Positions 7,015 to 31,511 of a DNA stretch of 64,000 bases are shown here, one piece after another. Numbering within the stretch: position 1 is the first letter of the stretch; each line of letters begins with the position of its first letter. Where the stretch lies: NCBI GenBank assembly GCA_949293555.1, contig CASFDV010000001.1:12590-76589 (forward strand), given 5' to 3'. This stretch comes from an uncultured Bacillota bacterium. GTDB lineage: Bacteria > Bacillota_I > Bacilli_A > RFN20 > CAG-826. A program made the position numbers and the translations under genes. The notes under the pieces are model-generated. The model saw only the letters and a program-made list of their open reading frames with translations. It did not search any database and was not told the DNA's origin.

Positions 7015-8064
7015 TCAATCGTTGACCAGGGTGATGGTGGGCGACACCCCCGGGGTCTCGAGCAGGAGGAAACCGTCCAGGAGCTCGTTCCTCGCCCCTC
7101 CCACGTTCTGGCCGACCCAGTCGTTCACGTGGAGCCCGACCATCGTGGTCGCCCTGTCGGGATAGTAGGCGGCGCTCACGAGGTAGGTGTGTCCCACCGC
7201 ATAGTCGAAGGAGTAGGTCCCGTCCTGCAGCTCGTCGAGCCACACGGTGTGGATCTCCTTCGTGCTGGAGCCGTAGATGTAGTCCTGGTCGCTGATGTTC
7301 ACGAAGACGTCGGTGTCGTAGGAGGAGCGGTTCTCGAAGGTGACCTCGACCTCCATCGTCTCAATCTCGAGCTCCCCGTAGGGGACGACCTCGATCTTGC
7401 GGATGAGGGTCCCGAGGCTGCTGTTGTTGGGGTCGAGGTGCAAATAGACGAGGCACTCCCCTGCCTTCACCTGCTTGAGGTCGACCTCGAGGTAGCCGCC
7501 GACGATGGAGTTCCCCGTGGAAGCGGTCACCGGGACGAAGTCGATCGCGTCCAGGGGGATGACCTCGGGGTCGCTCACGTCGATGGTCGCCTCGACGGAA
7601 CTGACATAGGTCCCGGAGCTGATGTTATGGAAAGCAAGGGGGATGTCCGTGGCCACGTCCCAGCTCGCCCCCTTGTCCGCCTCGCTCGCCTCGGAGATCC
7701 TCCCGTCGAAGGAAGCGCCCCACGAGAGGTTGTCGTCGGGGTCGTCGTAGCTCTCGACGAGGCTCGTCTCCACGGTGATGAGGACGTCCTCGGAAGGCAT
7801 CGTGAAGCGGTAGCCAATCCCCGTGTCGAAGATCTCCTCCCCGTTCATGTAAACGGCGTCCACCGAATGGAAGACGCTGACGATGTCGAGGTCGAAGTAG
7901 ACGGGATCCCCCTCCATCGCGCTTTCGGGAAGGTTCGTGATGAGGTATCCCTCCCCCTCCTCCCAGTCGATGGCGTGGCGCGGGGCGCTGGAGATCTCCT
8001 CCCCGCCACAGGAAGCGAGGGCGAGGAGAGGGATGAGGCATGCTAGGACGGCGTTCTTGCGCAT
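7015..8064 (-). CDS. acidic lipoprotein of unknown function
   Basis: Signal peptide plus lipobox LALASCGG. Highly Asp/Glu-rich mature region. No recognisable catalytic motif. Confidence 0.55.
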   Translation of the reverse strand: MRKNAVLACLIPLLALASCGGEEISSAPRHAIDWEEGEGYLITNLPESAMEGDPVYFDLDIVSVFHSVDAVYMNGEEIFDTGIGYRFTMPSEDVLITVETSLVESYDDPDDNLSWGASFDGRISEASEADKGASWDVATDIPLAFHNISSGTYVSSVEATIDVSDPEVIPLDAIDFVPVTASTGNSIVGGYLEVDLKQVKAGECLVYLHLDPNNSSLGTLIRKIEVVPYGELEIETMEVEVTFENRSSYDTDVFVNISDQDYIYGSSTKEIHTVWLDELQDGTYSFDYAVGHTYLVSAAYYPDRATTMVGLHVNDWVGQNVGGARNELLDGFLLLETPGVSPTITLVND

Positions 8065-8130
8065 AAATGGTCCTCCAGTGCCCCCATTATATCTTCAGGG
8101 ACGAATTCTCCTTACCCTATAATCGGGCGC

Positions 8131-8922
8131 ATGGACAGCATCAAGGCAATCTTCCTCGACTTCGACTGGACGCTTTTCGACCACAAGACCAGGAGTTTCA
8201 ACGAAGCGGGCGTCAAGACGCTCAACGAGGCTCACGAGAAGGGAATCCTCCTCATCATCGACTCGGCGAGGACCTACCACTCTCTCCGGGGGCTCGGGAC
8301 GTTCGGAAAGATCCCCTTCGACGGGTTCGTCGTCTCCAACGGAGGGGCCGCCTTCACCAAGGAAGGAATCCTGTACGCGGACTACATGAAGGACGATGCG
8401 CGGGACGACATCCTCCGCTACCTGGACGGAAGGGGGATTGGCTATAACCTCATCTGCCTCGAGGACACGTTCATCAAGGAACGGGACCAAAAGGTCATCA
8501 AGGACTTCTACTCTGTCTGGTACGAGCCCTATCCCCTTCCGATCGTTGAATGGAAGGGAGAGAGGGCGCTTGCGATCCAGGCGCTCATGCGAGAGGAGGA
8601 AGACCCGGGGCTCCTCGCCCTCTGCCAGAAGCATGGGATCCGCTTCAGCCGCTTCGCCGAGAACGCCGTGGAGCTTACCGGGACGGAGTTCCTCAAGAGC
8701 AAGGGAGTCGAGACAATGTACCGCCACCTCGGGCTGAGGCCTGAGGAAGCCATGGCCTTCGGCGACGATTTGAACGACATCCCGATGTTCCGGATGGTGA
8801 AGTACGGGATCTGCCTCGGGAACGGCAAGGAGGAAGCCAAGAAGGCGGCCTACTACGTTACCGACGCGATCGAGAAAGACGGGCTTGCCAAGGCGCTCCG
8901 CCATTTCGGAGTCGTTTCCTAG
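8131..8922 (+). CDS. Cof-type HAD-IIB hydrolase (sugar-phosphatase-like)
   Basis: IFLDFDWTLFD (DxD motif I)...SNGG...GDDLNDIPMF (motif IV). Confidence 0.8.
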   Translation: MDSIKAIFLDFDWTLFDHKTRSFNEAGVKTLNEAHEKGILLIIDSARTYHSLRGLGTFGKIPFDGFVVSNGGAAFTKEGILYADYMKDDARDDILRYLDGRGIGYNLICLEDTFIKERDQKVIKDFYSVWYEPYPLPIVEWKGERALAIQALMREEEDPGLLALCQKHGIRFSRFAENAVELTGTEFLKSKGVETMYRHLGLRPEEAMAFGDDLNDIPMFRMVKYGICLGNGKEEAKKAAYYVTDAIEKDGLAKALRHFGVVS

Positions 8923-9213
8923 GAAGGGCAACCCTTCCTCTGGATAACTGTCATTCGCTCGGGAATGAGGCGCTTTAATCCTAGGAGTTACTTAAGGCCT
9001 CTAGGAATTCCATAAAAAGAACTGCTTTCTGCAGGTATTCTTGGAAATTACGCGAGGCCTGCTATCAAGGGAAACCCATCAGGCGACGTCGGGAAGGACG
9101 GGGAGCAAGGCATGTTTCCAAGCGCATGCCCCTGGAACCCGCTTCCCAATGCCAGGCATGCCCATTAATCCGAAGAACAGGGCCCGAGGCGCAAACGAAT
9201 GGTCAAGGTCCGC

Positions 9214-18829: not shown

Positions 18830-18906
18830 TGGTGGCTGAGGAGGGACTTGAACCCCCGACCTGTCGGGTATGAACCGATCGCTCTGACCAGCTGGGCTAC
18901 TCAGCC
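18830..18906 (-). tRNA. tRNA-Met (CAT), elongator type
   Basis: Reverse complement is GGCTGAGTAGCCCAGCTGGTCAGAGCGATCGGTTCATACCCGACAGGTCGGGGGTTCAAGTCCCTCCTCAGCCACCA. Resembles E. coli metT. G1:C72 is paired, so it is not an initiator. Confidence 0.75.
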
Positions 18907-18923
18907 ATCCGCGGGCATCTTCC

Positions 18924-18998
18924 TGGTGGAGCATAGGGGTCTCGAACCCCCGACCCCCTGCTTGCAAAGCAGGTGCTCTACCGCTGAGCTAATGCCCC
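18924..18998 (-). tRNA. tRNA-Ala (TGC)
   Basis: Reverse complement is GGGGCATTAGCTCAGCGGTAGAGCACCTGCTTTGCAAGCAGGGGGTCGGGGGTTCGAGACCCCTATGCTCCACCA. G3:U70 identity pair, TGC anticodon. Confidence 0.85.
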
Positions 18999-19020
18999 GT
19001 GCCGCCTTGCGGCATCGCGG

Positions 19021-19049
19021 AATATAGCACTTACCCATAGGGGCATCAA
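19021..19049 (-). promoter_or_regulatory. candidate sigma70-type promoter for the tRNA Ala-Met-Ile cluster
   Basis: On the minus strand: TTGATG, 17 nt, TATATT, ending about 20 nt upstream of the tRNA-Ala 5' end. Confidence 0.3.
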
Positions 19050-19364
19050 GGGGAAAGGAAGGTATATGTAGTTATGAGCTGACTTGTTTCCAAGCAACCA
19101 TGACGTGATTTGTTTCTAGCCAAATCCCCCGGTAGAAGAACATTCCCCAGGGTGTCGGGGACATGAAGTGACCAGAAGATGAATACGACGCCTCGGCCAC
19201 CGGGAAAGCCCTGCGGAGAAGATTGCGACGGGGCAGACCGCGTGACGCTTTAAATGTCATGGCAGCACGCGAGCCGTCTGAAGGATGCCTGGCAGCAAGG
19301 GAGGGCTCCCCATCGCACCAAGGCGCGAAGAAATCCGCAATAACGGCAGTGGCAAGAGGCATGG

Positions 19365-19390
19365 AAAAAGGGGTCGCCGCAGCGACCCCT
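19365..19390 (-). terminator. intrinsic terminator after lipoprotein gene 19419..20309
   Basis: Minus-strand RNA forms a GGGGUCGCUGCGGCGACCCC hairpin followed by UUUUUCC. Confidence 0.4.
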
Positions 19391-19418
19391 CCCCTGTTGT
19401 CTCTCGCTTGCCTTCGGA

Positions 19419-20309
19419 CTAGCCGAGGGTGTAGAGGGCGGTGCACTTGAGCTGCACGGCGCCGTAGCCGAGGTTCTCAGGAACGGTCCCGGGAGTGACC
19501 TCGATGAGACCGGAGTAGTCGGCGTTCATGAAGGTGGACTTCTCCCAGTCGACCTCGAAGGTCACGCGGCAGCCGAAGTTACGGTTGCCGGCGCCGGTCT
19601 TGTCGTTGGAGGTCGGGTTGTACTCGTACATGATGATCATGCCCTTCCCGGTCTCGATGAGGTTGTGGAGCGTGGTCTTGTTGGTGATGGAGCCGGTGAA
19701 GTAGGCGGTGTCCCCTTCCATCTTGGCGCCCATGCCGTAGACGGCGGTGCTGATGACGCCCTCGGCATCGGTGGTGACGATGGTCTTGGTCGCGATGGCG
19801 TTGTTGTAGGAAGCGACATAGTAGCTCTCGCCATCGTTGGGGAAGACCTCGGTCATGTGCTCGGCGCCCTCGAGGGCGGCAGCGGCCTCAAGGGTCGCGG
19901 CGGAAGCGGGGGCCTCCTCGTTCGGATTGTACTGGCTGGGCTTCCAGTTCTCGATGTTCTCCCAGTAGTAGCCGTAGTACTTGGTGTTTGCGCGCTCGAC
20001 CATGTACTCGAAGGTGTAGTAGGAGCCGGTCCCCGCGGGGTAGTAGTCGGTCCCGGTGCCGGAAGCGCCGGCGATGCAGTCGATGTCCTCGTCGGCGGGC
20101 TTGGTCTCGGCCTCGTAGATGGCGGCGTTCGGGTCCTCGTAGGTGAAGTCGATCCCGGCGGCCTTGAGCTGCTCAGCGAAAGTGGTCGGCTGGGCGGTGG
20201 CGGTGCCCTCGCTCCCGGCGGGGCAGGAGCTGCAGGTGGATCCGTCGCCGCAGGAGGCGAGGAGGGTGGCGGCCGCGATCGCGGCGGTCAGGAGAATGGG
20301 TTTCTTCAT
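19419..20309 (-). CDS. lipoprotein of unknown function
   Basis: Start at ATG 20309: MKKPILLTAAIAAATLLASCG lipobox. No recognisable domain. Confidence 0.55.
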   Translation of the reverse strand: MKKPILLTAAIAAATLLASCGDGSTCSSCPAGSEGTATAQPTTFAEQLKAAGIDFTYEDPNAAIYEAETKPADEDIDCIAGASGTGTDYYPAGTGSYYTFEYMVERANTKYYGYYWENIENWKPSQYNPNEEAPASAATLEAAAALEGAEHMTEVFPNDGESYYVASYNNAIATKTIVTTDAEGVISTAVYGMGAKMEGDTAYFTGSITNKTTLHNLIETGKGMIIMYEYNPTSNDKTGAGNRNFGCRVTFEVDWEKSTFMNADYSGLIEVTPGTVPENLGYGAVQLKCTALYTLG

Positions 20310-20380
20310 TGTTTTTCTATCCCTTCTTTCGGGCACGTATTATTGAGATAAGTCAACCGAAATCAAGTGTCGGCAGGGGG

Positions 20381-20400: not shown

Positions 20401-21255
20401 CTAGTCGAGGAAGCGGAAGGCGAAGCCGATGACGTCGGGCCCTCCGTGGCAGGCGTCCGTCGCGTTCGTGGGGACGGCGAGGACTTCCTGGAAGCCCCGG
20501 GACTTCAGGTGGTTCACCGCCTCCTCCACCCCGTCCCTCGTGGCGCTCGTGTAGCCGAGGGCGGCGAGGCTAAAGTCAATCTTCCCTTCGTGGAGGCGGA
20601 GCCTTGAGTCGATGTACTTCCGGACGGCCTTCCCCATGTTCCCGAGGAGGAGGGTGGGGGCGAGGGAGAGCTTTCCTTCCTTCGTATAGACGCTGACCTT
20701 GAGGGGGAGGGGCGAGAGGAGCTTGGCGACGAGGGAGGGGCAACGCCCGCCCTTGGCCATGAACTTGAGGTCGCTGATCATGAGGGAGACGTCCTCCTTG
20801 TCCTTCACGGGGAGGGAGAGGCGCTTCAGCTCATGGATGTCGTCCTGCCCTTCCTTGAGGAGGCGCTCCGCCTCGAAGGCGAGCATCGCGATCCCGAGGG
20901 AGAACTGGCCGGAGTCGACGATCTCGATGGAGTCGTCCTCCCCCTTCGCCGCGAGGGCGTTCCGATAGCCCCCGGAAAGAAGGCTCGAGATCGAGAAGTG
21001 GACGATCCCCTCGTAGCCTTGCTCCTTGATCCTCTGGAAGTGGGATTGGTACTCGCTCACGTTCGGAGCGCTCGTCCTGGCAAGGTCGGGATGGGTGTTT
21101 CCGTACTCGAAGATGTCCTCGTTCGTCTTCTCTCCGTCAAGATACGTCTCCTCCCCCATCGTGAGATGGAAGGGAATGGAGAAGAAGCCGTGCTCGGAAA
21201 GGACTTCCTTGGGTAGGTCGGCGGTGCTTTCCACCGAAATAGCGATTTTCTTCAT
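20401..21255 (-). CDS. DegV family fatty-acid-binding protein
   Basis: MKKIAISVESTADLPKE..., EDD/DegV fold, typical ~280 aa length. Confidence 0.85.
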   Translation of the reverse strand: MKKIAISVESTADLPKEVLSEHGFFSIPFHLTMGEETYLDGEKTNEDIFEYGNTHPDLARTSAPNVSEYQSHFQRIKEQGYEGIVHFSISSLLSGGYRNALAAKGEDDSIEIVDSGQFSLGIAMLAFEAERLLKEGQDDIHELKRLSLPVKDKEDVSLMISDLKFMAKGGRCPSLVAKLLSPLPLKVSVYTKEGKLSLAPTLLLGNMGKAVRKYIDSRLRLHEGKIDFSLAALGYTSATRDGVEEAVNHLKSRGFQEVLAVPTNATDACHGGPDVIGFAFRFLD

Positions 21256-21346: not shown

Positions 21347-21915
21347 TCAGAAACGATGGGGAAGCAGGCCCGAGGGCTTCCTCTCTTCCGGATAAAGGAG
21401 CAGGAGGGGCAGGGAAAGGAGCGCCGCAAGAGGCGTCCAAAGAAGCTCCCAGGAGAGGATCCCTAGGTCCTTCGACGATTCGAGGACCCAGGAATCTGCG
21501 TAGAGGGAGAAGGGGACGCCCTCCGTGCCGACGTAGCGATACCACTCCCCCTGAAGGGATCCGAAGCCATGGAGGAGAAAAAGGGCGTCCTGGGAAGAGG
21601 GGACGGAGGACCCCTGCCTCATATGTTCCTCGAGGAAGGCGAGGGCAAGGGCGAGGGCGATGAGGGAAGGCGCCGCCTGTCCCCTCCAAAGGGCAAGGAA
21701 GGAGAGGAGGCCCTCCTCCAACCCCCGCCCCTCAGGGAGAGCCAGGCAAGGAACAGGGAAAGGAGAGAAGCGAGCCCAAGCGAAAGCAGGGAAACCCTCG
21801 CGTCATAGGAAGTCCCTCCCGCCAGGAGCTCCATGCCCCAGAGAAGGAGGACGGCGAAAGGGGAGGCAAGAAGGAAGGGGGCGCTCTTCGTCCTCTCTCC
21901 GGCCATGGGGATCAC
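21347..21915 (-). pseudogene. possible frameshifted membrane-protein gene (two overlapping frames, 21619..21915 and 21347..21721)
   Basis: The upstream frame encodes two hydrophobic helices, then degenerates into Pro/Ser/Arg junk. The overlapping downstream frame continues as a plausible multi-TM protein (LIALALALAFLEEHMRQG...FLLHGFG...). A C-homopolymer region lies at about 21720-21750. The frameshift could be genuine or an assembly error. Confidence 0.25.
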
Positions 21916-21954: not shown

Positions 21955-22479
21955 CTACCTCTTGGTGATCCGGAGGAACTCGAACACCCTCGTCTTGATG
22001 ATCCTGTCCGCGAGGAAGCCCGTCGCGAGGCCGGTGAGAAGGCTCGTGAGCCCCATCAGGGGGAAGTACCAGAGGACCGCGGAGGTCCCAAGGAGCGGGA
22101 TCGCGACGAGGATCTGCCCGAGCGAATGGAAGAAGGCGCCGAGGAGGGAGGCCCCGTAGATGGTGAACACCTTGGAGAAGGCCCCCTTCACGAGAAGCAT
22201 CGCCAGGTAGGAAAGGACCCCTCCGGCAAGGGACATGTAGAAGGGGAAGCTCAGGATCCGGCCCGTCATGAGGGAGGCGAGGAAGATCCTCCCGAGGTCG
22301 ACGATGAGCGCCTCCTTCCACGAGAACTGGTATATGAGGAGGAGGATCACGATGTTCGCGAGCCCCGGCTTGAAGCCCGGGACCGCGGATATGGGGATGA
22401 AGCTCTCGGCGATCGAAAGGGCGAGGGCGAGGGCGAGCATCGCCGCGTCGGCCGCCATCCTCCTTACGCTCCCCTTCAT
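21955..22479 (-). CDS. Gx transporter family protein (PF07456; historically annotated 'heptaprenyl diphosphate synthase component I')
   Basis: Small polytopic membrane protein (about 5 TM helices; ...PGFKPGLANIVILLLIY...). Start overlaps the upstream gene's stop. Conserved neighbour of ApbE/NusG_II in Bacillota. Confidence 0.6.
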   Translation of the reverse strand: MKGSVRRMAADAAMLALALALSIAESFIPISAVPGFKPGLANIVILLLIYQFSWKEALIVDLGRIFLASLMTGRILSFPFYMSLAGGVLSYLAMLLVKGAFSKVFTIYGASLLGAFFHSLGQILVAIPLLGTSAVLWYFPLMGLTSLLTGLATGFLADRIIKTRVFEFLRITKR

Positions 22480-22949
22480 ATGATGATGTCAGGGCCGCTT
22501 TGGGAACCGAGGGCCCCATCCTCCTTGGCGAACTCCACGCGGACGTGGTTATAGGCGCAGACGATCGGACGCCTCACGTCCATCGTGTAGCCGAGGCCGA
22601 CGCAGTACTGGGAAGGGCATCCCGACTCGAGGACGGCGACCCCTTCCGCAGAAAGGGCGAGGGTCATCGGGGTCATCGCCCCCTGGATGCGGTACGCCTT
22701 AAGGGCCTCTTCCCCATAAGGGGACGGATCCACTTCTTGCACGTCTTTCGAAAGGACTTTGGATAAAGAAGGCTCCTCCAGATTCAAGGAAAGAAGCCTC
22801 TCTTCGTCCCGATAGACGATGGCTTCTTCGAAATCGCCCTCAGGAGCGAGGATCGCACCGATCGTTCCTCCGAGGAGGGCGAGGAAGAGCGCTAGGAAAA
22901 GGACGATGTCCCCTAGATGCTTCCTGAGGCCCTCCTTGAGGGCCATCAC
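22476..22949 (-). CDS. NusG domain II-containing protein (DUF1312-like), membrane-anchored
   Basis: N-terminal TM helix then a small beta domain with CPSQYCV...RPIVCAYNHVRVEF, matching the NusG_II family usually found between apbE and the Gx transporter. Confidence 0.5.
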   Translation of the reverse strand: MMALKEGLRKHLGDIVLFLALFLALLGGTIGAILAPEGDFEEAIVYRDEERLLSLNLEEPSLSKVLSKDVQEVDPSPYGEEALKAYRIQGAMTPMTLALSAEGVAVLESGCPSQYCVGLGYTMDVRRPIVCAYNHVRVEFAKEDGALGSQSGPDIII

Positions 22950-24034
22950 TTCACCTCTTCAAGAGGGAAGCCTTCGCTTTGATAGACGAAGGGATCCTCC
23001 CTTCTCTCGTCATAGAGGAACATTTCGTATCCCATCCCTTCGATTTCCGCAATCTTGGCCTCCTCCCCCCTCATGAGAAGGTAGGTGCTGAGGACATCGC
23101 ACCAGCCGGCATCATCCCCGATCACAACCGCGGTGGTCAAAGCGGGGACGGCGCTCCCGTCCATGGGATCGACGACATGGGAATACAAGGTCCCGGTCGT
23201 CTCGTCGACCTTGTGCTGGAGGGTGGTCGCGCTCGTCCCGACGGAACGGTCTCGGACCCGGAAGCCGTACCCTTCCACGTCGGCGAGTCCGATCAGGAAA
23301 GTCCCGTCCTCGGCAAGGGGGTTCGTCCCGAAAGAGAGGGAACTCCCGCCTGCGTTGAGGAGGAAGTAGCGGTTTCCTTCTTCAAGAAGACGTTCCCGCA
23401 CTCTCGCGAGAGCGTACCCCTTCCCCATCGCTCCGAAGTCAAGAAGGGCGTCCCCTGCCTTCGTCACATATGCGGCCCCCTCACCTACGGAAAGGGCAAG
23501 GCTGCTTCCGTGGATTCTGTCGACTTCCGCGGATATCTCTTCCTTCGTCGGAAGCCGGGCGTCCTCCCCCTCGTTATTTACCCAGAGGTCCTTCCAAAGG
23601 TTCGCGAGCCCCCCGGAAAGGATGTCGATCGCGCCCTCGGTGAAGTCCTTGGCCTCTTCGGCGAATTCCAGAAGGCCTTGGAAGAAGCCATCGAGAGGAA
23701 ACGTTCCTTCTTCCTCGCTCAAGAGGAGCGCGGTCGTCTTCCCCTGCATGTCGCCCCAGCGAAGGTCTGTCTCCATGTAATGCGACATGTGCGCGAAAGA
23801 ATCGGAAATTTCCTCGTAAAGGCCATCTTCCGCCTTTCCTTTCTCATGGAAGAAGCGGAATTCTGAGAAGGCGCCGAAGGAAAGGTAATCGAAGACAGAC
23901 GAAGCGGTCCACTCCTTCCCGACCCAGTCGTTCCCGCTGCCCGTGGACTGTTGGGAGGTGGAGGAAGAGCTGCCTCCCGGAATCTCGCAAGCGAGGAGAA
24001 GCGGCACGAAAAGAAGGGCAAGGGACTTTTTCAT
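22946..24034 (-). CDS. apbE: FAD:protein FMN transferase (flavin transferase ApbE), lipoprotein
   Basis: Start at internal ATG 24034: MKKSLALLFVPLLLAC lipobox. ApbE fold motifs (...GAMGKGYALARV..., ...VIGDDAGWCDVLST...). Confidence 0.8.
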   Translation of the reverse strand: MKKSLALLFVPLLLACEIPGGSSSSTSQQSTGSGNDWVGKEWTASSVFDYLSFGAFSEFRFFHEKGKAEDGLYEEISDSFAHMSHYMETDLRWGDMQGKTTALLLSEEEGTFPLDGFFQGLLEFAEEAKDFTEGAIDILSGGLANLWKDLWVNNEGEDARLPTKEEISAEVDRIHGSSLALSVGEGAAYVTKAGDALLDFGAMGKGYALARVRERLLEEGNRYFLLNAGGSSLSFGTNPLAEDGTFLIGLADVEGYGFRVRDRSVGTSATTLQHKVDETTGTLYSHVVDPMDGSAVPALTTAVVIGDDAGWCDVLSTYLLMRGEEAKIAEIEGMGYEMFLYDERREDPFVYQSEGFPLEEVK

Positions 24035-24094
24035 ACGGCGGATTCTAGATTGTCCTGGCTTGTTTCTCAACGGAGGGCGGGAATGGGGAGGAAA

Positions 24095-24130
24095 AGGCAA
24101 AGAAAAAGGCCTCCCTTCCGGAAGGCCTCC
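24095..24130 (-). terminator. intrinsic terminator between rnfB and apbE
   Basis: Minus-strand RNA forms a GGAGGCCUUCCGGAAGGGAGGCC hairpin followed by UUUUUCUUUGCCUUUU. Confidence 0.45.
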
Positions 24131-24133
24131 TGC

Positions 24134-24481
24134 TCATTCCTCTTCCTCGTAGACGGGCTCGGGATGCTCTTTGAGGTAGAGGAGGATGGGGTCGAAGTTC
24201 TTCTCCTTCTTCCCCGGGCGGCAGAGGGCGGGGTCCTTGACCTCGCCGGAGACGAGCTTTTCCGCCATCTCCTGGCAGCCGGCGTTCCCGCAGGCGCCGC
24301 AGTCGATCCCGGGGAGGAGCTTCTTCACCTCCCCCACCCTCTTGTCCTCCTTCACCTTGAAGACGACGCTGAAGAGGCAGAGGAGGAAGGCGAAGATCGC
24401 CCCGAGGGCGAGAAGCACCAGGAAGCTATAGAGGATCGCCATCCCGTTGTCGAAGGCCATGTCCAGCAGGCTCATGTCCAT
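24134..24481 (-). CDS. rnfB: RnfB-like subunit reduced to the N-terminal membrane-anchored Fe-S domain (no ferredoxin domains)
   Basis: TM helix, then LPGIDCGACGNAGCQEMAEK...ALCRPG. Compare E. coli RsxB [20 protein letters not shown]...CAPGG. The protein ends at 115 aa with no CxxCxxCxxxCP ferredoxin motifs. Confidence 0.6.
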   Translation of the reverse strand: MDMSLLDMAFDNGMAILYSFLVLLALGAIFAFLLCLFSVVFKVKEDKRVGEVKKLLPGIDCGACGNAGCQEMAEKLVSGEVKDPALCRPGKKEKNFDPILLYLKEHPEPVYEEEE

Positions 24482-24484
24482 TTC

Positions 24485-24706
24485 TCACTCCTTCTTCCCT
24501 TCTTCAGGGGGATTCTCATTTTCCTTTGGCCGGTAGAGCCGGCAGCCGGCGTTCTTGCAGCCGATGCAGTCCGTCTCGTCCTTCCGCACCCTCTCGCATC
24601 CCTTGGGAGGCTTCGTCCTCATGTACCAGACGAAGCTTCCGAGGAAGAGGAGGGCGAGGAGGACGACGATGGCGATCGCCAGGCCCCTGGCCGTGGCCTC
24701 GTCCAT
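24485..24706 (-). CDS. small membrane-anchored Cys-rich protein (second RnfB-N-domain-like mini-subunit)
   Basis: 73 aa. TM helix then CERVRKDETDCIGCKNAGCRLY (C-x8-C-x2-C-x4-C), resembling the CGACGNAGC cluster motif of the adjacent rnfB. Translationally coupled: TAG-ATG after rnfA, 3-nt gap before rnfB. Confidence 0.45.
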   Translation of the reverse strand: MDEATARGLAIAIVVLLALLFLGSFVWYMRTKPPKGCERVRKDETDCIGCKNAGCRLYRPKENENPPEEGKKE

Positions 24707-25291
24707 CTAGGCGATGCCCTGGAGCCCCATGAAGGCGAGCGCCATGAGGGCGGCGGTCACCATCGCGATGGGGATGCCCTTGAGGGCGCGGGGGGTCTCG
24801 GCGCTCTCCAGCCTCTCGCGGATGAGGGCGAAGAGGACGATCACGAGGAGGTAGCCGAGCGAAGTCCCGATCGCGTTCCCCATCGAGCTCAGGAAGTCGA
24901 GCCCCTGGTCGGTGTTCCCCTGGGCGACCCCGAGGACCGCGCAGTTGGTGGTGATGAGGGGGAGGTAGATCCCCAGTCCCTTGTAGAGCGCGGGCGAGGT
25001 CTTCTTGACGAAGATCCCCACGAGCTGCACGAGGGAGGCAATGACGAGGATGTAGACGATGGTGTCGAGGAACTCCATCTTCGCCGGGACGAGGACGTAG
25101 TTATATAGAGGCCAGCAGACGAGGCTCGCCAGCACGATGACGAAGGTCACCGCGAGGCCCATCGAGAAGGCCGGCTTGACCTTGCTCCCGGTCCCGAGGA
25201 AGCTGCAGATCCCGTAGAAACGGGCGAGGACGACGTTGTCGATGAGAGAGCTCGTCAGTACGGCGAGGAGGAAGGCGACGATGTATTCCAT
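24707..25291 (-). CDS. rnfA: Rnf electron transport complex subunit A
   Basis: ...KTSPALYKGLGIYLPLITTNCAVLGVAQ...LIRERL...AFMGLQG, canonical RnfA/NqrE. Confidence 0.85.
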   Translation of the reverse strand: MEYIVAFLLAVLTSSLIDNVVLARFYGICSFLGTGSKVKPAFSMGLAVTFVIVLASLVCWPLYNYVLVPAKMEFLDTIVYILVIASLVQLVGIFVKKTSPALYKGLGIYLPLITTNCAVLGVAQGNTDQGLDFLSSMGNAIGTSLGYLLVIVLFALIRERLESAETPRALKGIPIAMVTAALMALAFMGLQGIA

Positions 25292-25294
25292 GGG

Positions 25295-26020
25295 CTAGTT
25301 CGCTCCTTCCTGGGCCGCGGCCCTCTTCTTGGCGAGGAGGGCGTCCACCCTCGCCTTGTCCCTCTTATGGATGTCGATCGCGGCGATGATAGCAAGGGCG
25401 ATCCCCAGCACGAGGAAGCCCCCGATCGAACGCTGGAAGAACTCGATCGAGAGGTCGTAGACCCCGTCGACCTTCAGGAGCGGGAGCGAGTACTCCGGGA
25501 TGAAGGTGAACACCTTCCCGAAGGTGAGCTGCCCCGTCCCGAGGATCTCCCTCACCAGGGCGATGAGGCAGATGGCCCAGCCGAAGCCGATGCCGTTCCC
25601 GAGGGCGTCGAGGGCGCTGTTGAGCACCGTGTTCTTCGAGGCGTAGGCCTCGCTCCTCCCCAGCACGATGCAGTTCACGACGAGGAGGGAGAGGAAGACG
25701 CCGAGCGAGGTGTATAGCTCCGGGAGGAAGGCCTCGCAGAGCATCTTCACCACCGTGACGAAGGTGGCGATGATGACGATGTAGCAGGGCGTCGTGATCT
25801 CTTCCGGGATGAGCTTCCGGAGGAGCGAGACGCAGACGTTCGACCCCAGGAGCACCAGGGTGAAGAGTATCGCCATCCCGAAGGCGCTCTCGAAGGAGGT
25901 CGTGACGGCGAGGGCCGGGCAGAAGCCCAGGAGGGAGACGAAGAGGGGGTTGGCCTTCCAGATTCCGGAGACGAAGGCCTCCTTCCTCTCTCCCCGCATG
26001 TCGATAGCCTTGTCCGCCAT
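25295..26020 (-). CDS. rnfE: Rnf electron transport complex subunit E
   Basis: ...ANPLFVSLLGFCPALAVTTS...LLVVNCIVLGRSEAYA..., canonical RnfE/NqrD. Confidence 0.85.
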   Translation of the reverse strand: MADKAIDMRGERKEAFVSGIWKANPLFVSLLGFCPALAVTTSFESAFGMAILFTLVLLGSNVCVSLLRKLIPEEITTPCYIVIIATFVTVVKMLCEAFLPELYTSLGVFLSLLVVNCIVLGRSEAYASKNTVLNSALDALGNGIGFGWAICLIALVREILGTGQLTFGKVFTFIPEYSLPLLKVDGVYDLSIEFFQRSIGGFLVLGIALAIIAAIDIHKRDKARVDALLAKKRAAAQEGAN

Positions 26021-26023
26021 ATC

Positions 26024-29000
26024 CTAGAGCGCGAGGAGCGCCTCCACCTCGGCGGGGACGTCGCCAAGGTAGTCGGCCTGGGCGTCCTCGATCCCGGACT
26101 CGATCCATCCGAGCTCGGAGGCGATGGGGCTCTCCGAAGGAATCTCCGGGATGGCCTTGCTGGAGTTCAGTTGCTCCACCCATGTGGTGAGGGCAGTCAG
26201 GTTCTCGCCCTCGAGCGTCGTGTTCACGACCTCGAGCCCGATGATCTCGGCGTCCTCGCCGAGGGCGACGTAATAGAGGTTGTCATCGCCCGTGCTCCCG
26301 GCCTTGAACTCGTAGACGCGGCCGATCTCGGCCTCGCTTTCGTCAAGGGCGCTCCAGTAGCCGGTCGCCTGCCAGACGGCGGAAAGCTCGACGAAGGCGT
26401 TCCAGGAGTGGGCCTCGGGGATGAGCGCCTTGACGCTCTCGGGGATGTTCGTCGGAACGACGGGTTCCGAAGGATCGACGACCTGGTCGGGATTCGCCTC
26501 GTAGTGGGCCAATGCCTCGGCGATCGCGTCATGCGCGATCACGATGCCGACGGTCCCGCTCGAGGGCTCGTAGCCATCGGTGTCCTCGTAGGAGCCGCCT
26601 CCGTTCACCGACTCGATGTATCCGTCCGTCCCGTCCGGACGGCTCTGCTCGTTGACGAGGGCGACGACCTTGCCGATGGTGCCGTCGGCGTTCACGCCGA
26701 TGAGGAGCTGGAGGTCGCCCCACTTTCCGCCGACGTTCGTCGTGTTCGTGAGGTAGCCCCTTCCGAGCACCTCGCCGGACTCGTTCTTCACCTCGCGGTA
26801 GGAGTGGAGGTAGGTCCCGCCTTCGACTTTCTGGGAGGAGCTGACGGAATAGGAGCCATCCCAGAGGGCGAGGTAGGGAGACTCGACGGTCTCCTTCTCA
26901 TAGGCGAGGGCCGCGTCGATGTCCGCGGCGATCTGATAGGCGGCTTGCTCGACGCCGGAAGTGGCGATGTCCTCGCGGTAGTCGGCGGTCCCGTCGTTGA
27001 TCTTGGCGATCCAGCTCTCGACGCCCGCAAGATAGGCGCTGTCCCAGTCCCCGCTCACGAGGCTGAGGGCGAAGCTCCCGTCCTGCTCCACGAGGATGAC
27101 GAGATCGTAGTCCCCGTCGCTCGCGGCGCCCGAGAGATAGTAGGAGGCGCCCTCTTCGACGCCATCCGCGTCGAGGACGCCCATGCGGGCGATGATGTTC
27201 CCTTCGTTGATGATCGCGGGCTCGCCCCAGCCTTCGGCCTCGGGGAGAGCGTCCGCCATGGCCTTCGTGATCTCGGCGGGGAGGTTCGCGACGCCGGTGT
27301 AGTCCCCGATGGCCTCGGCGATCGCGTCATGGGCGATCTCGATGCCGACGGTCCCGCTCGAGGACTCGTAGCCGAAGATGTCCTCGTAGGAGCCGCCGCC
27401 GTTGACGGACTCGATGTAGCTGTTGGTCCCGTCCGGGCGGCTCTGCTCGTTGACGAGCGCGACGATCGAGGAAATCTCGCCGTCCGGCTCGATGCCGATG
27501 AGGAGCTGGAGGTCGCCCCAGCGGCCTCCGACGTTCGTGGTGTTCGTGAGGTAGCCCCTTCCGAGCACCTCGCCGGACTCGTTCTTCACCTCGCGGTAGG
27601 AGACGATGTACTCATAATCGCCGCTGAGGGCGACTTCCTCGCCGACCGTAGCGGCGTTCCGGAATAGGCTCAGGTATTTCTCAGTCAGGTCGACGACCGT
27701 GCCGGTCGCGTAGCCCTTGGCCTCGGAGACGATGTTCCGGATGAGGGTCGCGGAGACGGTCGCCCCGGTGGTCGTGCCGCCGTCGATCGTCGCGCTCCCG
27801 CCGTTGATGGAGTCGATCCAGGCGGAGATGACCTCCTCGGTCCCGATGGGGTTCCCGCCGGAGTAGTCCTCGAGCGAGAGCCCCGTCACCTCGCCCTCGG
27901 GAGTGAGCCCGACGAGGATCGCCACATGGACGCCGTGCTGGTTCGTGCCCTCGCCGTAGTAGGCGGTCCCGAGGAGGGCGCCCCCGGCGTCCTTCACCTC
28001 GCGGGAGGCCTTGACGTACTCGCCCTCCAGGGCGGCCTCGGCACCGACCGAGGAGGCCCCCTCGAAGAGGGACTTCGCCTCGTCCTCGCCGATGACGGAC
28101 TCGACCGGGGCGGGGCCGGTGTAGTCGGCGACGGCCTCGTCGATGATGGCCTTCATGGTGATGTAGGAGGCCGTGGCGGTCGGGCCGGACTCGATGGAGC
28201 CGGTGCCGTCGTTGACGGAGTCGATCCAGGCCTGGACCCCCGTGAGGGTGCCGCCGGGGCCCATCGCGTCGCCGCTCGTCGCGGAGTAGTCCTCGAGGAA
28301 GAGCCCGGATACTTCCCCGTCGGTAGTGACGCCGACGAGGAGGGCGATGTTGACCTCGAAGGTGTTGTGGCCGGATCCGCGATAGGCGCGGCCGAGCACG
28401 TTCCCGGAGGCGTCCTTCACCTCTCGGTAGGAGCTCAGGTAGGTCTTGCCTTCGAGCGCGACCTCCTCCCCGACGGAGGAGGCGCCTTCAAAGAGGTCGA
28501 GGTACTTCTGGTCGGGGTCGACCGGCCCGGGCGGGACGTCCCCGTTCTCGTAGAGGTCGAGCGCCTCGGCGACCATCTCGCGGACGACGGAGGCGGTGTT
28601 GGTGGCGCCGGTGGTGGTGCCGCCGTCGATCGTCGCGGAGCCGTCGTTGATGGACTCGATCCACGCCTCGACGGTCGCGTTGTTGCCTCCGGTGTTGTCC
28701 GGCCCGTAGGCGACGATCTCGATGTGGGCGAGGCCGTCCGCGTCGACGCCGATGAGGAGGTCGACGGTCGCGCCGAACCCCGTGGCTCCCACCGCGTGGT
28801 ACACCTTGCCGATCTCGTTCCCGGAGCCGTCGAGGGCGCTCTTGTACGTCTCGATGTAAGTGCCGCTGGAGACCTCGGTCTCATCGCCGAAGGAGGCGGC
28901 GTCGGGGAAGCAGGCGTAATAGGCCTCGTTCTCCTTCCGATCGTTGTTCTCTCCGATGATGTCCGCGGTGAAGTAGTTCACCGTCCCGATGAGGGCGCCC

Positions 29001-29071
29001 GCCCCGCCGCCGATGAGGGCAAGGACGGCGACGACCGAGAGAACGTGCTTTGCGTCGAGCTTGATCTTCAT
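26024..29071 (-). CDS. rnfG: Rnf subunit G expanded to ~1015 aa with multiple tandem FMN-binding domains
   Basis: N-terminal signal-anchor TM plus a canonical RnfG/NqrC FMN_bind domain (..DGGTTTGATNTASVV..). Then at least five further FMN_bind-like repeats, each with a flavinylation-type [ST]G[AV][TS] motif (SGPTATAS, GGTTTGATVSAT, SSSGTVGIEIAHDAI, IATSGVEQAAY, PSSGTVGIVIAHDAI). Sits between rnfD and rnfE with ATGA start/stop overlaps. Confidence 0.8.
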   Translation of the reverse strand: MKIKLDAKHVLSVVAVLALIGGGAGALIGTVNYFTADIIGENNDRKENEAYYACFPDAASFGDETEVSSGTYIETYKSALDGSGNEIGKVYHAVGATGFGATVDLLIGVDADGLAHIEIVAYGPDNTGGNNATVEAWIESINDGSATIDGGTTTGATNTASVVREMVAEALDLYENGDVPPGPVDPDQKYLDLFEGASSVGEEVALEGKTYLSSYREVKDASGNVLGRAYRGSGHNTFEVNIALLVGVTTDGEVSGLFLEDYSATSGDAMGPGGTLTGVQAWIDSVNDGTGSIESGPTATASYITMKAIIDEAVADYTGPAPVESVIGEDEAKSLFEGASSVGAEAALEGEYVKASREVKDAGGALLGTAYYGEGTNQHGVHVAILVGLTPEGEVTGLSLEDYSGGNPIGTEEVISAWIDSINGGSATIDGGTTTGATVSATLIRNIVSEAKGYATGTVVDLTEKYLSLFRNAATVGEEVALSGDYEYIVSYREVKNESGEVLGRGYLTNTTNVGGRWGDLQLLIGIEPDGEISSIVALVNEQSRPDGTNSYIESVNGGGSYEDIFGYESSSGTVGIEIAHDAIAEAIGDYTGVANLPAEITKAMADALPEAEGWGEPAIINEGNIIARMGVLDADGVEEGASYYLSGAASDGDYDLVILVEQDGSFALSLVSGDWDSAYLAGVESWIAKINDGTADYREDIATSGVEQAAYQIAADIDAALAYEKETVESPYLALWDGSYSVSSSQKVEGGTYLHSYREVKNESGEVLGRGYLTNTTNVGGKWGDLQLLIGVNADGTIGKVVALVNEQSRPDGTDGYIESVNGGGSYEDTDGYEPSSGTVGIVIAHDAIAEALAHYEANPDQVVDPSEPVVPTNIPESVKALIPEAHSWNAFVELSAVWQATGYWSALDESEAEIGRVYEFKAGSTGDDNLYYVALGEDAEIIGLEVVNTTLEGENLTALTTWVEQLNSSKAIPEIPSESPIASELGWIESGIEDAQADYLGDVPAEVEALLAL
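26514..27602. repeat. intragenic tandem duplication in rnfG: 291-nt segments 26514..26804 and 27312..27602 (period 798 nt, roughly 85-90% identical)
   Basis: Nearly identical runs, e.g. GAGGTAGCCCCTTCCGAGCACCTCGCCGGACTCGTTCTTCACCTCGCGGTAGGAG in both copies. Corresponds to repeated protein blocks YREVKNESGEVLGRGYLTNTTNVGG[RK]WGDLQLLIG...SSGTVGI.IAHDAIAEA. Confidence 0.6.
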
Positions 29072-30210
29072 TTGACTTTACCTCCGAAGATGATTCCGAT
29101 GACGATGAAGAGGATGTCGGCGAGGAGGATGAGGCCGATGGTCAGCCACTTCTTCCACGTCCACCGGGACGAGGCCACCTTGTGGTGGTCGAGGACCGGG
29201 GTGATGAGGTTGGCGAGGAGGATCGAGTAGCCGACCCCCTCGGGCGCCGAGGCGAAGAGACGGATGAGGACGGTGAGGGAGGCGGCGGAGAGGGCGTAGA
29301 TGTAGCGCCCCGGCTTCGTCGCCGGCATCGTGACCGGGTCGGTCAGCATGAAGGTCGCCCCGAAGAGCATGCCTCCCGCGAGGAACTCGACCCCGATGAA
29401 GTGCCAGATGTCGAAGTCCTTGACGATGCCGCCCCCGGCGATCGCGATCCCCGCGATGGCGATGAGGGCGGTGAAGGCGCCGACGTAGGTGAAGGTCACG
29501 CGCCAGTCGATGGCCTGGCGGAGCAGGAGGTAGAGGAGGCCGACGAGGATGAGCACCTTGCACACCTCGCCCATCGCCCCCTGGGTCCTGCCGAGGAAGA
29601 GGTCGAGGAGGGAGACGTCCATGAGGGAGGAGTAGCCGCCCTGGATCGTGCCGGAGAGGACAGTGCCCCCGGTGACGACGTCGACCATCGTCCCCTCGCC
29701 CCAGGGGATGGCGGGGTAGCTCATCGTGTTCGAGAAGCTGAGGCGCGTGAGGATCATGCCCACGGCGGCGGGGTTGAAGATGTTCTGCCCGAGGCCCCCG
29801 AAGAGGAGCTTGCCGAAGATGATGCCGGCGAGCGCCCCGACGAGGACGCCCCACCAGCTCGTGGTGGGCGGGAGGCACATCCCGAAGATGAGGGCGGAGA
29901 CGGCGGGCGCCACGGCGTTCACCGGGCGGTACAGCTTCAGCGCGTGGAGGAACTTCTCCTTGAAGGGATGCTTCTCCCCGTCGTAGGGCATCCGCCCCTT
30001 GATCATGACGAAGACCCATTCGGCGATCATCATCGCCGGGACCGCGATCCCGAACACCTTGAGGGCGTCGAGGCGATAGACGATGAAGGAGAAGATGAGG
30101 AGGGGCAGGAGGGCGAGGAGGACGTCGAGCATCATCCTCGTGGCGCTGTCCTTCCTCCGGACGTGCGGGCTTGGCTCCTGGAGGAGCCGCATGGTGTTCT
30201 CTTCGCTCAT
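29068..30210 (-). CDS. rnfD: Rnf electron transport complex subunit D
   Basis: ...GGLGQNIFNPAAVGMI...FMLTDPVTMPAT... (NqrB/RnfD family with the conserved TDP flavinylation region). Confidence 0.85.
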   Translation of the reverse strand: MSEENTMRLLQEPSPHVRRKDSATRMMLDVLLALLPLLIFSFIVYRLDALKVFGIAVPAMMIAEWVFVMIKGRMPYDGEKHPFKEKFLHALKLYRPVNAVAPAVSALIFGMCLPPTTSWWGVLVGALAGIIFGKLLFGGLGQNIFNPAAVGMILTRLSFSNTMSYPAIPWGEGTMVDVVTGGTVLSGTIQGGYSSLMDVSLLDLFLGRTQGAMGEVCKVLILVGLLYLLLRQAIDWRVTFTYVGAFTALIAIAGIAIAGGGIVKDFDIWHFIGVEFLAGGMLFGATFMLTDPVTMPATKPGRYIYALSAASLTVLIRLFASAPEGVGYSILLANLITPVLDHHKVASSRWTWKKWLTIGLILLADILFIVIGIIFGGKVK

Positions 30211-31511
30211 GAAAGACGCGCGATGCGCTTTGCCCTCCTTACGTACTCGGTGACGTTGATGCGGCTCGTGCAGCTATAGGCGCAGAGCCCGCATTCGACG
30301 CAGCGCTCGGGGTGGAGCGCCTTGACCCTCTCCTTGTCCCCGCTCTTCACCGCCTGGGCGATGAGGACGGGCATGAGGTGGGTCGGGCAGCTGTAGACGC
30401 AGGAGCCGCAGCGGACGCAGCTATCGGCGGTCCACACCTCCTCGTCCATCACGAGGATGGAGGTGACGGTGGGGGTGAGGATGATGTCGTCATCTGCCAC
30501 GGTGTTCCCCATCATGGGGCCGCCCATGATGAGGCGCTTCTTCTTCCCGGAATCGGTATACCCCCCGGCAAGCGGGAGAAGGTCCCGGAGGGGGGTCCCG
30601 ATCCGCGCCTTGAGGAACTTCTGCTCGTTCACCCCGTCCCCGTGGATCTGCACGTAGCGCGAGAGGAGGGGCATCCTCTTCTTCGCGGCGAGATAAAGGG
30701 AGTAGATGGTGGCGACGTTGTACTCGAGGATCCCGAACTCCGCGGGGAGATGGCCGCTCGGGATGTCGACGCCCGTTGCGGTCTTGATGCAGGCGACCTC
30801 CCATCCCTGGGGATAGAAGTTCCAGACCGGGGCGAAGGAGATGCCGGAGCCCTCCTCGCCGGCGAGGGCGCTCGACCAGCATTCCGCGAGGTCCTTGTAG
30901 ATCCACTTCGCGCAGATCTTCCCTTCCTTGGCGCCGGTGGCCCTCATGAGGAGGCGGAGCCCCTCGATGATCTCGCGGGGGTGCTCCAGCATGAGGCGGT
31001 GGTCGCTTGCCAGCGAGGGCTCGCACTCGACCCCGTTGATGACGATGGTGTGGATCTGATGGTCCCCCTGGAGCTTCACGTAGCTCGGGAAGGAAGAGCC
31101 GCCGAGGCCGACGAGGGCCATGTCCCGCATGATGGCGAGGACATCCTCCTTCGTCAGGGCCTTGAGCTCCTCCTCGCTCCTCTCCTTGAGGGAAGGATCC
31201 GGCTCGTCCTTGAAGTCGTTCTCGATCTTCAGGAACTCGCACTCCTTCCCCGTGTGGTGGAGGTGCTTCTCGATCCCGAGGTAGGTGCCGGAGCAGGTGG
31301 ATACGATCGGCTGCTCGAAGAAGGGTCCCTTCCGGAGGCCGAGGCGCTCCCCGACCCTCACATGGTCCCCCTCCTTCACGGAAAGCTCGTAGGAGGCGCA
31401 GCGGCCGTTCGTGCCTGCGACGTAGCAGTACTTGGGCAAAGGCGCCTCTTCCAGTTCCTGATGGGCGAGGAGGACGTTGGGCAGCTCGATGTGACGTGCT
31501 TTCGCAATCAT
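30207..31511 (-). CDS. rnfC: Rnf electron transport complex subunit C (NADH-binding, 2x[4Fe-4S])
   Basis: ...GLGGSSFPSYVKL... and CVRCGSCVYSCP / CVECGLCAYSC ferredoxin motifs. RBS AAGGAAACGGG. Confidence 0.85.
   Translation of the reverse strand: MIAKARHIELPNVLLAHQELEEAPLPKYCYVAGTNGRCASYELSVKEGDHVRVGERLGLRKGPFFEQPIVSTCSGTYLGIEKHLHHTGKECEFLKIENDFKDEPDPSLKERSEEELKALTKEDVLAIMRDMALVGLGGSSFPSYVKLQGDHQIHTIVINGVECEPSLASDHRLMLEHPREIIEGLRLLMRATGAKEGKICAKWIYKDLAECWSSALAGEEGSGISFAPVWNFYPQGWEVACIKTATGVDIPSGHLPAEFGILEYNVATIYSLYLAAKKRMPLLSRYVQIHGDGVNEQKFLKARIGTPLRDLLPLAGGYTDSGKKKRLIMGGPMMGNTVADDDIILTPTVTSILVMDEEVWTADSCVRCGSCVYSCPTHLMPVLIAQAVKSGDKERVKALHPERCVECGLCAYSCTSRINVTEYVRRAKRIARLS

Follow-up and report, generated by a model that had tools for sequence, protein, structure and literature searches.

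Directly behind an Rnf operon, in a 64-kb stretch of DNA (hereafter 'the window') from an uncultured, high-GC lineage of Bacilli, lie three adjacent genes: apbE, eetA and eetB. They appear to form one small operon with its own promoter that would provide flavin, covalently attached, for those parts of the Rnf complex that face outward, an interpretation to which we give a probability of about 0.7. ApbE is a lipoprotein-type FAD:protein FMN transferase (FAD, flavin adenine dinucleotide; FMN, flavin mononucleotide); EetA is a protein of the NusG_II, or DUF1312, family; and EetB is a 'Gx transporter' that resembles the S component of transporters of the energy-coupling factor (ECF) type. The interpretation draws on the assignment of these proteins to families and folds, the translational coupling of their genes, the conserved gene order, a relative in which the trio is co-operonic with rnf, the flavinylation motifs of RnfG and RnfD, and published genetics in Listeria. 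Gene identities, predicted folds, operon anatomy and conserved synteny are what this analysis establishes; the biochemistry was shown in Listeria alone, and the mechanistic steps that follow are argued from homology unless we say otherwise.

In outline, EetB would bind FAD in the cytosol and carry it across to the membrane's outer face; its partners in this would be an ECF-T subunit and EcfA/A' ATPases, which we assume to be encoded elsewhere in the genome. ApbE, anchored in the outer leaflet, would use the exported FAD and transfer FMN onto threonine. Its targets would be T183 of RnfD (in the motif TGGT), the TGAT sites in modules 1 and 3 of RnfG and, possibly, the divergent sites of modules 2, 4 and 6. 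EetA, a single-pass protein with its NusG_II beta domain outward, would accompany EetB, with a part, perhaps, in hand-over or docking between it and ApbE.

Known flavinylation cassettes

Listeria monocytogenes deleted for eetB (PF07456) neither flavinylates the protein PplA nor carries out extracellular electron transfer (EET), and external FAD partly rescues the deletion (Rivera-Lugo et al. 2023; PMC9973259). Listeria EetB binds FAD in a pull-down and resembles RibU; together with the ECF-T protein FmnA and EcfA/A', it has been proposed to export FAD as a supply for FmnB, the homolog of ApbE (PMC9973259). Deletion of eetA has no phenotype in Listeria, and Data Set S1 of the same paper equates NusG_II (PF07009) with EetA (PMC9973259). 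The gene eetB occurs in 4,214 of 31,910 genomes, and adjoins eetA in 3,328, apbE in 2,169, and Rnf in 572 Clostridia (PMC9973259). Multi-flavinylated proteins, among them Rnf clusters with a multi-flavinylated RnfG, were described by Méheust et al. (2021), who proposed a second, outward electron path (PMC8238504). The trio and its association with Rnf are thus already in the literature. An earlier note on this DNA, made from the sequence alone, had called the clustering of the three genes recurrent in Bacillota, and both the genome counts (PMC9973259) and the synteny in relatives described below bear this out. It had also treated the roles of both accessory proteins as open questions. That holds for EetA, and no longer for the PF07456 protein, EetB, for which FAD export has been shown in Listeria (PMC9973259).

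With the Listeria EET locus the window shares an ECF-S-like EetB closest to RibU, a lipoprotein ApbE, and adjacent eetA and eetB genes. The likeness is one of family and fold, the proteins of both being assigned to PF07456 (EetB), PF07009 (EetA) and PF02424 (FmnB, ApbE). The settings differ: the Listeria cassette stands beside Ndh2, DmkA/DmkB and PplA, whereas that of the window is attached to an Rnf operon, has no FmnA-like ECF-T gene nearby, and forms one coupled apbE–eetA–eetB unit. The neighbours of the trio are Rnf subunits, DegV, proteins without a Pfam family, an ATP-binding cassette (ABC) ATPase and a Na/H exchanger; none belongs to the marker families Ndh2, DmkA/DmkB, PplA or FmnA, and the locus is accordingly not of the Listeria EET type. 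Published Rnf clusters with eetB and the window have in common the order rnfCDGEAB followed by apbE and eetAB, and an RnfG with more than one FMN_bind module. They differ in host, the published clusters being from Clostridia and the window from high-GC Bacilli (with relatives among Bacilli and Erysipelotrichaceae metagenome-assembled genomes, MAGs). They differ also in that five of the seven RnfG modules in the window lack the canonical motif, and in the RnfB, which is 115 aa long and paired with a 73-aa paralog.

The three proteins

ApbE matches PF02424 with 105.8 bits (cut-off 25.6). A phmmer search of solved structures returned 13 ApbE/Ftp chains, FAD:protein FMN transferases, with E-values down to 4e-11. 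The conserved blocks of the family are present (GAxD..G.L..LW, DxGAxGKGYA, NAGGS, GTS, YSHxxDP..GSA and D..ST), and alignments to 1VRM, 4XGW and orthologs keep GAxD, DxGxxxKGYA, NxGG, YSHxxDPxxG and D..ST. At one position the protein has GTSA in place of the usual ATSG, and its N-terminal region, where the residue that distinguishes transferases from pyrophosphatases is found, did not align to the solved structures. With NCBIfam's equivalog model of the E. coli type of ApbE it scores 37.5, far below the threshold of 498, which places it outside that narrow subfamily. The longest open reading frame (ORF) of apbE begins at a TTG at position 24100, but translation really begins at the ATG at 24034. 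This start yields a lipoprotein signal, MKKSLALLFVPLLLAC, and is the one called in relatives. Read by eye, MKKSLALLFVPLLLAC is a signal peptide with the lipobox LLLAC, and orthologs keep a Cys-containing lipobox at this place. ApbE is, on this evidence, a predicted extracytosolic lipoprotein, as the earlier note had it.

EetB matches PF07456 (Hpre_diP_synt_I) with 127.9 bits (cut-off 30) over profile positions 1–146 of 147. Neither EetA nor EetB found a match among PDB sequences with phmmer, and fold comparison was therefore needed for both. The predicted fold of EetB is that of an ECF S component, closest to the riboflavin S component RibU (5KBW and 3P5N; identity 13–17%). Unlike RibU, an importer of flavin, EetB is reported to export FAD.

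EetA is predicted to have the fold of NusG domain II. An N-terminal membrane helix (residues 2–33 in the model) is followed by a beta domain that probably faces outward. Its identity to the DUF1312/NusG_II structures 3LD7 (Lin0431), 4OBI (EF3258) and 4ESN (RUMGNA_02503) is 16–25%. It differs from these in a hypervariable stretch, residues 36–85, part of which is absent from the homolog P0008. Elsewhere, EetA has an invariant Cys/His cluster of the form C-x4-C...C-x3-H, comprising C110, C115, C130 and H134.

Operon anatomy

The three genes are joined by overlaps of stop and start codons: apbE into eetA by TGATG, and eetA into eetB by ATGA. We take these overlaps to mean that the trio is translationally coupled. 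Immediately upstream, the rnf operon closes with a hairpin; of the terminator-like sites in 13 kb of scanned sequence, it is the strongest (Table 1). It folds with an energy of -23.1 kcal/mol (z -2.3), and only 7 of 200 shuffled sequences do equally well. A hairpin and T-run follow the rnfB stop directly in five related loci also (L011, L015, L001, L003 and L004), with different stems in L003 and L004. Position and form together are those of a predicted intrinsic, or Rho-independent, terminator, and the strong terminator that the earlier note had placed here is upheld. A hairpin in a sixth locus, L010, was considered as another instance and rejected: it lies within the region coding for the ApbE signal peptide, the apbE ATG there overlapping the rnfB stop.

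Between terminator and apbE is a promoter-like site. Its -10 hexamer, TAGAAT, stands 7 nt before the apbE ATG in the window and 7–8 nt before it in L011, L015, L001, L003 and L004, loci that range from 38 to 62% in GC content. The -35 element, 17 nt further upstream, is TTGAGA in the window and TTGAAG in L003 and L004; in the latter two it falls within the loop of the rnfB terminator. No Shine–Dalgarno sequence is visible before the apbE ATG. From this, and from the closeness of the -10 element, we infer that the apbE mRNA is probably leaderless, and the trio probably transcribed separately from rnf. The only hits of an Rfam scan were five tRNAs; in the vicinity of the operon it showed neither an FMN riboswitch nor any other RNA element.

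Presumed acceptor sites in RnfG and RnfD

The main presumed substrate of ApbE is RnfG, a giant of its kind. Its seven modules align with one another, and module 1 matches the solved RnfG chains 7ZC6_G (E 3e-7) and 9ERI_G; as a whole, the protein matches the Pfam family FMN_bind weakly, with 25.6 bits. The canonical flavinylation motif, [S/T]GA[S/T], occurs in two of the seven, as TGAT in module 1 (residues 154–157) and module 3 (residues 435–438). The corresponding site reads ATAS in module 2 and SSGT in modules 4 and 6, and has no Ser or Thr in modules 5 and 7. Modules 4 and 6 are near-duplicates. These motifs support two sure sites and five possible ones at most; the 'six or more flavinylation sites' of the earlier note were an overcount. 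Orthologs of RnfG have one or two canonical motifs, variable in number and position; in L005 and L010, whose RnfG is of normal size, the site reads CGAT. In RnfD, the presumed site TGGT aligns with TTAT of Clostridium tetanomorphum RnfD (7ZC6_D). RnfG and RnfD are the only window proteins with recognised flavinylation motifs.

Conservation of the locus

No exact match to the EetA of the window turned up in a sequence look-up, and related contigs were reached through P0001, a protein 96% identical to it. The order rnfCDGEA–orf73–rnfB–apbE–eetA–eetB is kept in L001, L003, L004, L005, L010 and L011–L015, and the adjacency of eetB to eetA and apbE in at least 10 related loci. Of these syntenic loci, L011–L015 are metagenome contigs, and the others belong to MAGs labelled uncultured Firmicutes, Bacilli or Erysipelotrichaceae. 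L010 is a distant relative. There, the overlap of the apbE ATG with the rnfB stop makes the trio co-operonic with rnf, and the functional link to Rnf that the earlier note had drawn from adjacency is supported by it. Four other loci, L006–L009, have eetA–eetB with no Rnf gene within 10 kb.

Two further observations concern the relatives themselves. In L005, an Erysipelotrichaceae MAG, a gene for a HipA-like kinase (PF07804) and a 264-aa gene sit between rnfB and apbE (positions 7274–8931 of that locus). The 264-aa gene has a weak, sub-threshold match to a helix-turn-helix (HTH) domain, and the HipA-like/HTH pair resembles an insertion of toxin–antitoxin type. The closest sister lineages, L003 and L004, have the same gene order at 38–40% GC, with GC content at third codon positions (GC3) near 0.3, compared with 62% (GC3 near 0.93) in the window clade. 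For uncultured Bacilli that are related to each other, the difference in composition is very large.

Weighing the alternatives

A number of points weigh against a flavin supply to Rnf, and they bear on different parts of the argument. As to identity, EetA scores 28.3 bits against PF07009 (E 2e-6), which is 1.3 bits under the cut-off of 29.6, and neither EetA nor EetB matches any NCBIfam model. Even so, profile hidden Markov models (HMMs) and predicted folds agree for all three proteins, and the family assignments of the earlier note stand, the failure of HMM confirmation that it had named as a refutation not having occurred; PF07009 is carried by 8 of 8 EetA homologs (precomputed matches, marked weak at the encoding loci). 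The Pfam name of PF07456, which JGI gives to some homologs too, would make EetB component I of heptaprenyl diphosphate synthase, for the menaquinone side chain, and the NusG_II protein could be read likewise as a fragment of a transcription factor. By its predicted fold, however, EetB is an ECF S component and no partner of a prenyl synthase, and neither component II nor menaquinone genes turned up among the window ORFs scanned (37 distinct ORFs, a portion of the whole, were covered by the Pfam profile scan). The NusG_II protein is anchored in the membrane and lacks the NGN and KOW domains of NusG, and published genetics assign FAD export to EetB (PMC9973259). These inherited names can be considered effectively refuted.

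Direction is a different matter. It cannot be read from the sequence of a transporter, and the folds closest to EetB are those of importers (RibU). Furthermore, the 37 ORFs scanned, which represent part of the ORFs in 64 kb of a genome, yielded neither ECF-T nor ECF-A/A'. The transporter thus seems to lack its partners within the window, and they have to be assumed; the complete candidate module that the earlier note saw in this region is not supported. One might suppose that the trio serves flavin salvage instead, EetB being an importing, RibU-like S component, and the ApbE homolog behaving like Ftp of Treponema pallidum, a FAD pyrophosphatase by which external FAD is cleaved to FMN and adenosine monophosphate (AMP) for uptake. 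Salvage would suit a reduced, host-associated bacterium. Listeria EetB, however, is no substitute for RibU in uptake and is needed for export (PMC9973259), and both the position of the trio right after rnf and the flavinylation motifs of RnfG and RnfD speak for a transferase. We consider salvage improbable.

The terminator and separate promoter between rnfB and apbE complete the points on this side: with them, expression of the trio could be uncoupled from that of Rnf, and its substrates could be others. Conceivably, then, it flavinylates other extracytosolic flavoproteins, encoded elsewhere, and its adjacency to rnf is historical and not functional here. The strength of the terminator, the conservation of both elements, the eetA–eetB pairs of L006–L009 that have no Rnf nearby, and the GC3 (0.72–0.73, against 0.90–0.96) and allele history that set apbE and eetA apart from rnf (see below) all favour this. 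But synteny with rnf has been kept across lineages of 38% to 62% GC, the genes are co-operonic in L010, and no window proteins besides RnfG and RnfD carry recognised motifs. In place of a supply to Rnf, such a general service seems to us about as improbable as salvage; a supply to Rnf, which we prefer, and a general service are not exclusive, however.

Genes of the locus and its surroundings

All of the Rnf genes, C, D, G, E, A and B, are found in the window (Table 1). Two long plus-strand ORFs that overlie the trio (22979–23866 and 23951–25108) were dismissed as high-GC artefacts because their GC3 is 0.60–0.63 and because all family matches are in the overlapping minus-strand frames.

Table 1. 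Features of the rnf–apbE–eetA–eetB locus, in order of transcription (positions in the window)
Feature	Position	Strand	Remarks
rnfC	30207-31511	minus	Complex1_51K, RnfC_N, SLBB and Fer4 domains (Pfam)
rnfD	29068-30210	minus	PF03116, 255.8 bits; presumed flavinylation site TGGT, residues 180-183
rnfG (giant, 1015 aa)	26024-29071	minus	membrane anchor and seven FMN_bind-like modules; main presumed ApbE substrate
rnfE	25295-26020	minus	PF02508 (rnfA and rnfE: 189 and 192 bits)
rnfA	24707-25291	minus	PF02508 (see rnfE)
orf73 (small membrane protein, 73 aa)	24485-24706	minus	C-x9-C-x2-C-x4-C; paralog of RnfB N-terminus
mini-rnfB (115 aa)	24134-24481	minus	membrane helix and one PF04060 Fe-S domain
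Predicted intrinsic terminator of rnf operon	24104-24131	minus	12-bp stem, GGAA loop, TTTTTCTTT tail
Promoter-like site TTGAGA-17-TAGAAT	24042-24070	minus	10 of 12 consensus matches; putative function
apbE (FAD:protein FMN transferase, lipoprotein, 362 aa)	22946-24034	minus	PF02424
eetA (NusG_II/DUF1312 protein, 156 aa from ATG)	22476-22946	minus	PF07009, just under cut-off; predicted fold
eetB ('Gx transporter', ECF-S-like membrane protein, 174 aa)	21955-22479	minus	PF07456; presumed FAD-binding, exporting S component
Damaged fourth gene (remnant)	21350-21906	minus	tblastn of L011 protein, and blastn
degV	20401-21255	minus	follows damaged gene

In L001 and L011–L017, the gene after eetB encodes a multi-pass membrane protein of 333 aa without a Pfam family. 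The copy in the window lacks about 440 nt of its interior and is frameshifted, and its remnant has no Pfam match. When the L011 protein is compared with the window by tblastn, residues 1–68 and 210–333 match in two different frames, and the middle is missing (blastn). A short sequence at the junction is common to both alignment blocks. The damage could be either that of a pseudogene or an error of assembly. Downstream of degV, positions 14744–20336 of the minus strand encode three large predicted proteins (751, 541 and 305 aa) without a Pfam family. Of these, at least those of 751 and 305 aa have N-termini resembling those of lipoproteins, and the group adjoins a cluster of three tRNA genes (18662–18998).

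A shortened RnfB and a mosaic of alleles

The RnfB of the window consists of little besides its PF04060 domain. It has no ferredoxin-type [4Fe-4S] domains: its match to the Pfam FeS family (40.7 bits) is the only one, and the NCBIfam RnfB models match it over their first 80 or so positions only. It is one of a kind that recurs, since 17 clusters of RnfB homologs are 99–126 aa long and have PF04060 alone. Its neighbour orf73 is 35% identical to RnfB over 65 aa (E 4e-6) and has no Pfam match. Five loci, L001, L003, L004, L005 and L010, have orf73 between rnfA and rnfB, and the same five keep the mini-RnfB. The literature on short or truncated RnfB, or on Rnf in Erysipelotrichales-like lineages, yielded nothing useful.

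Alleles were compared between the window and L001 and L011–L017, within a species-level clade defined by RnfC, RnfD, RnfE, RnfA and DegV that are at least 97% identical. Identity to the window in this clade takes the values 95, 78 and 55% for ApbE, 95, 82 and 64% for EetA, and 94, 84 and 72% for RnfG. The divergence is confined to surface-exposed proteins. In EetA the variation lies in residues 36–85, and in RnfG module 1 is conserved and the outer modules are variable. The composition of the genes differs as well, GC3 being 0.72–0.77 in apbE and eetA compared with 0.9 or more in their neighbours (0.90–0.96 in rnf). Positive selection was considered as the cause of the divergence of ApbE and EetA, and rejected: the ratio of nonsynonymous to synonymous substitution rates (dN/dS) is below 1 in every segment, and dS, too, is raised in the divergent forms. 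The pattern suggests that the deep alleles of ApbE, EetA and RnfG are old ones that have been exchanged by recombination.

Significance

The value of the cassette lies in its clean and well-delimited form in an uncultured, high-GC lineage of Bacilli, with coupled genes, a promoter-like site, and a terminator after rnfB. In itself it adds little, since both what EetB does and the genomic link of eetA, eetB and apbE to Rnf were already in print. EetA is widespread (3,328 genomes), and its invariant Cys/His cluster is a concrete lead to its function. The remodelling of Rnf and the mosaic of alleles are more unusual than the trio. An RnfB free of ferredoxin domains bears on the electron donor of Rnf; the degenerate FMN_bind modules of RnfG may be spacers, or non-canonical flavinylation sites; and the presence of outward-facing components, and of only those, as highly divergent alleles within one species poses a question that can be tested. 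A bolder, and doubtful, interpretation, though one to which we allow slightly more than to salvage, is that Rnf in this clade of Bacilli has been rebuilt from an ion pump driven by ferredoxin and nicotinamide adenine dinucleotide (a ferredoxin:NAD+ pump) into an outward electron conduit. It is prompted by the RnfB without ferredoxin-type domains and its 73-aa paralog; by the seven-module stalk of RnfG, of which only some modules are flavin-competent; and by the circulation of ApbE, the EetA loop and the outer RnfG modules as recombining deep alleles within one species, as one would expect of the surface antigens or phage receptors of a cell that lives with a host. If it is true, apbE–eetA–eetB would be the dedicated maturation unit of that conduit, transcribed separately and possibly without a leader.

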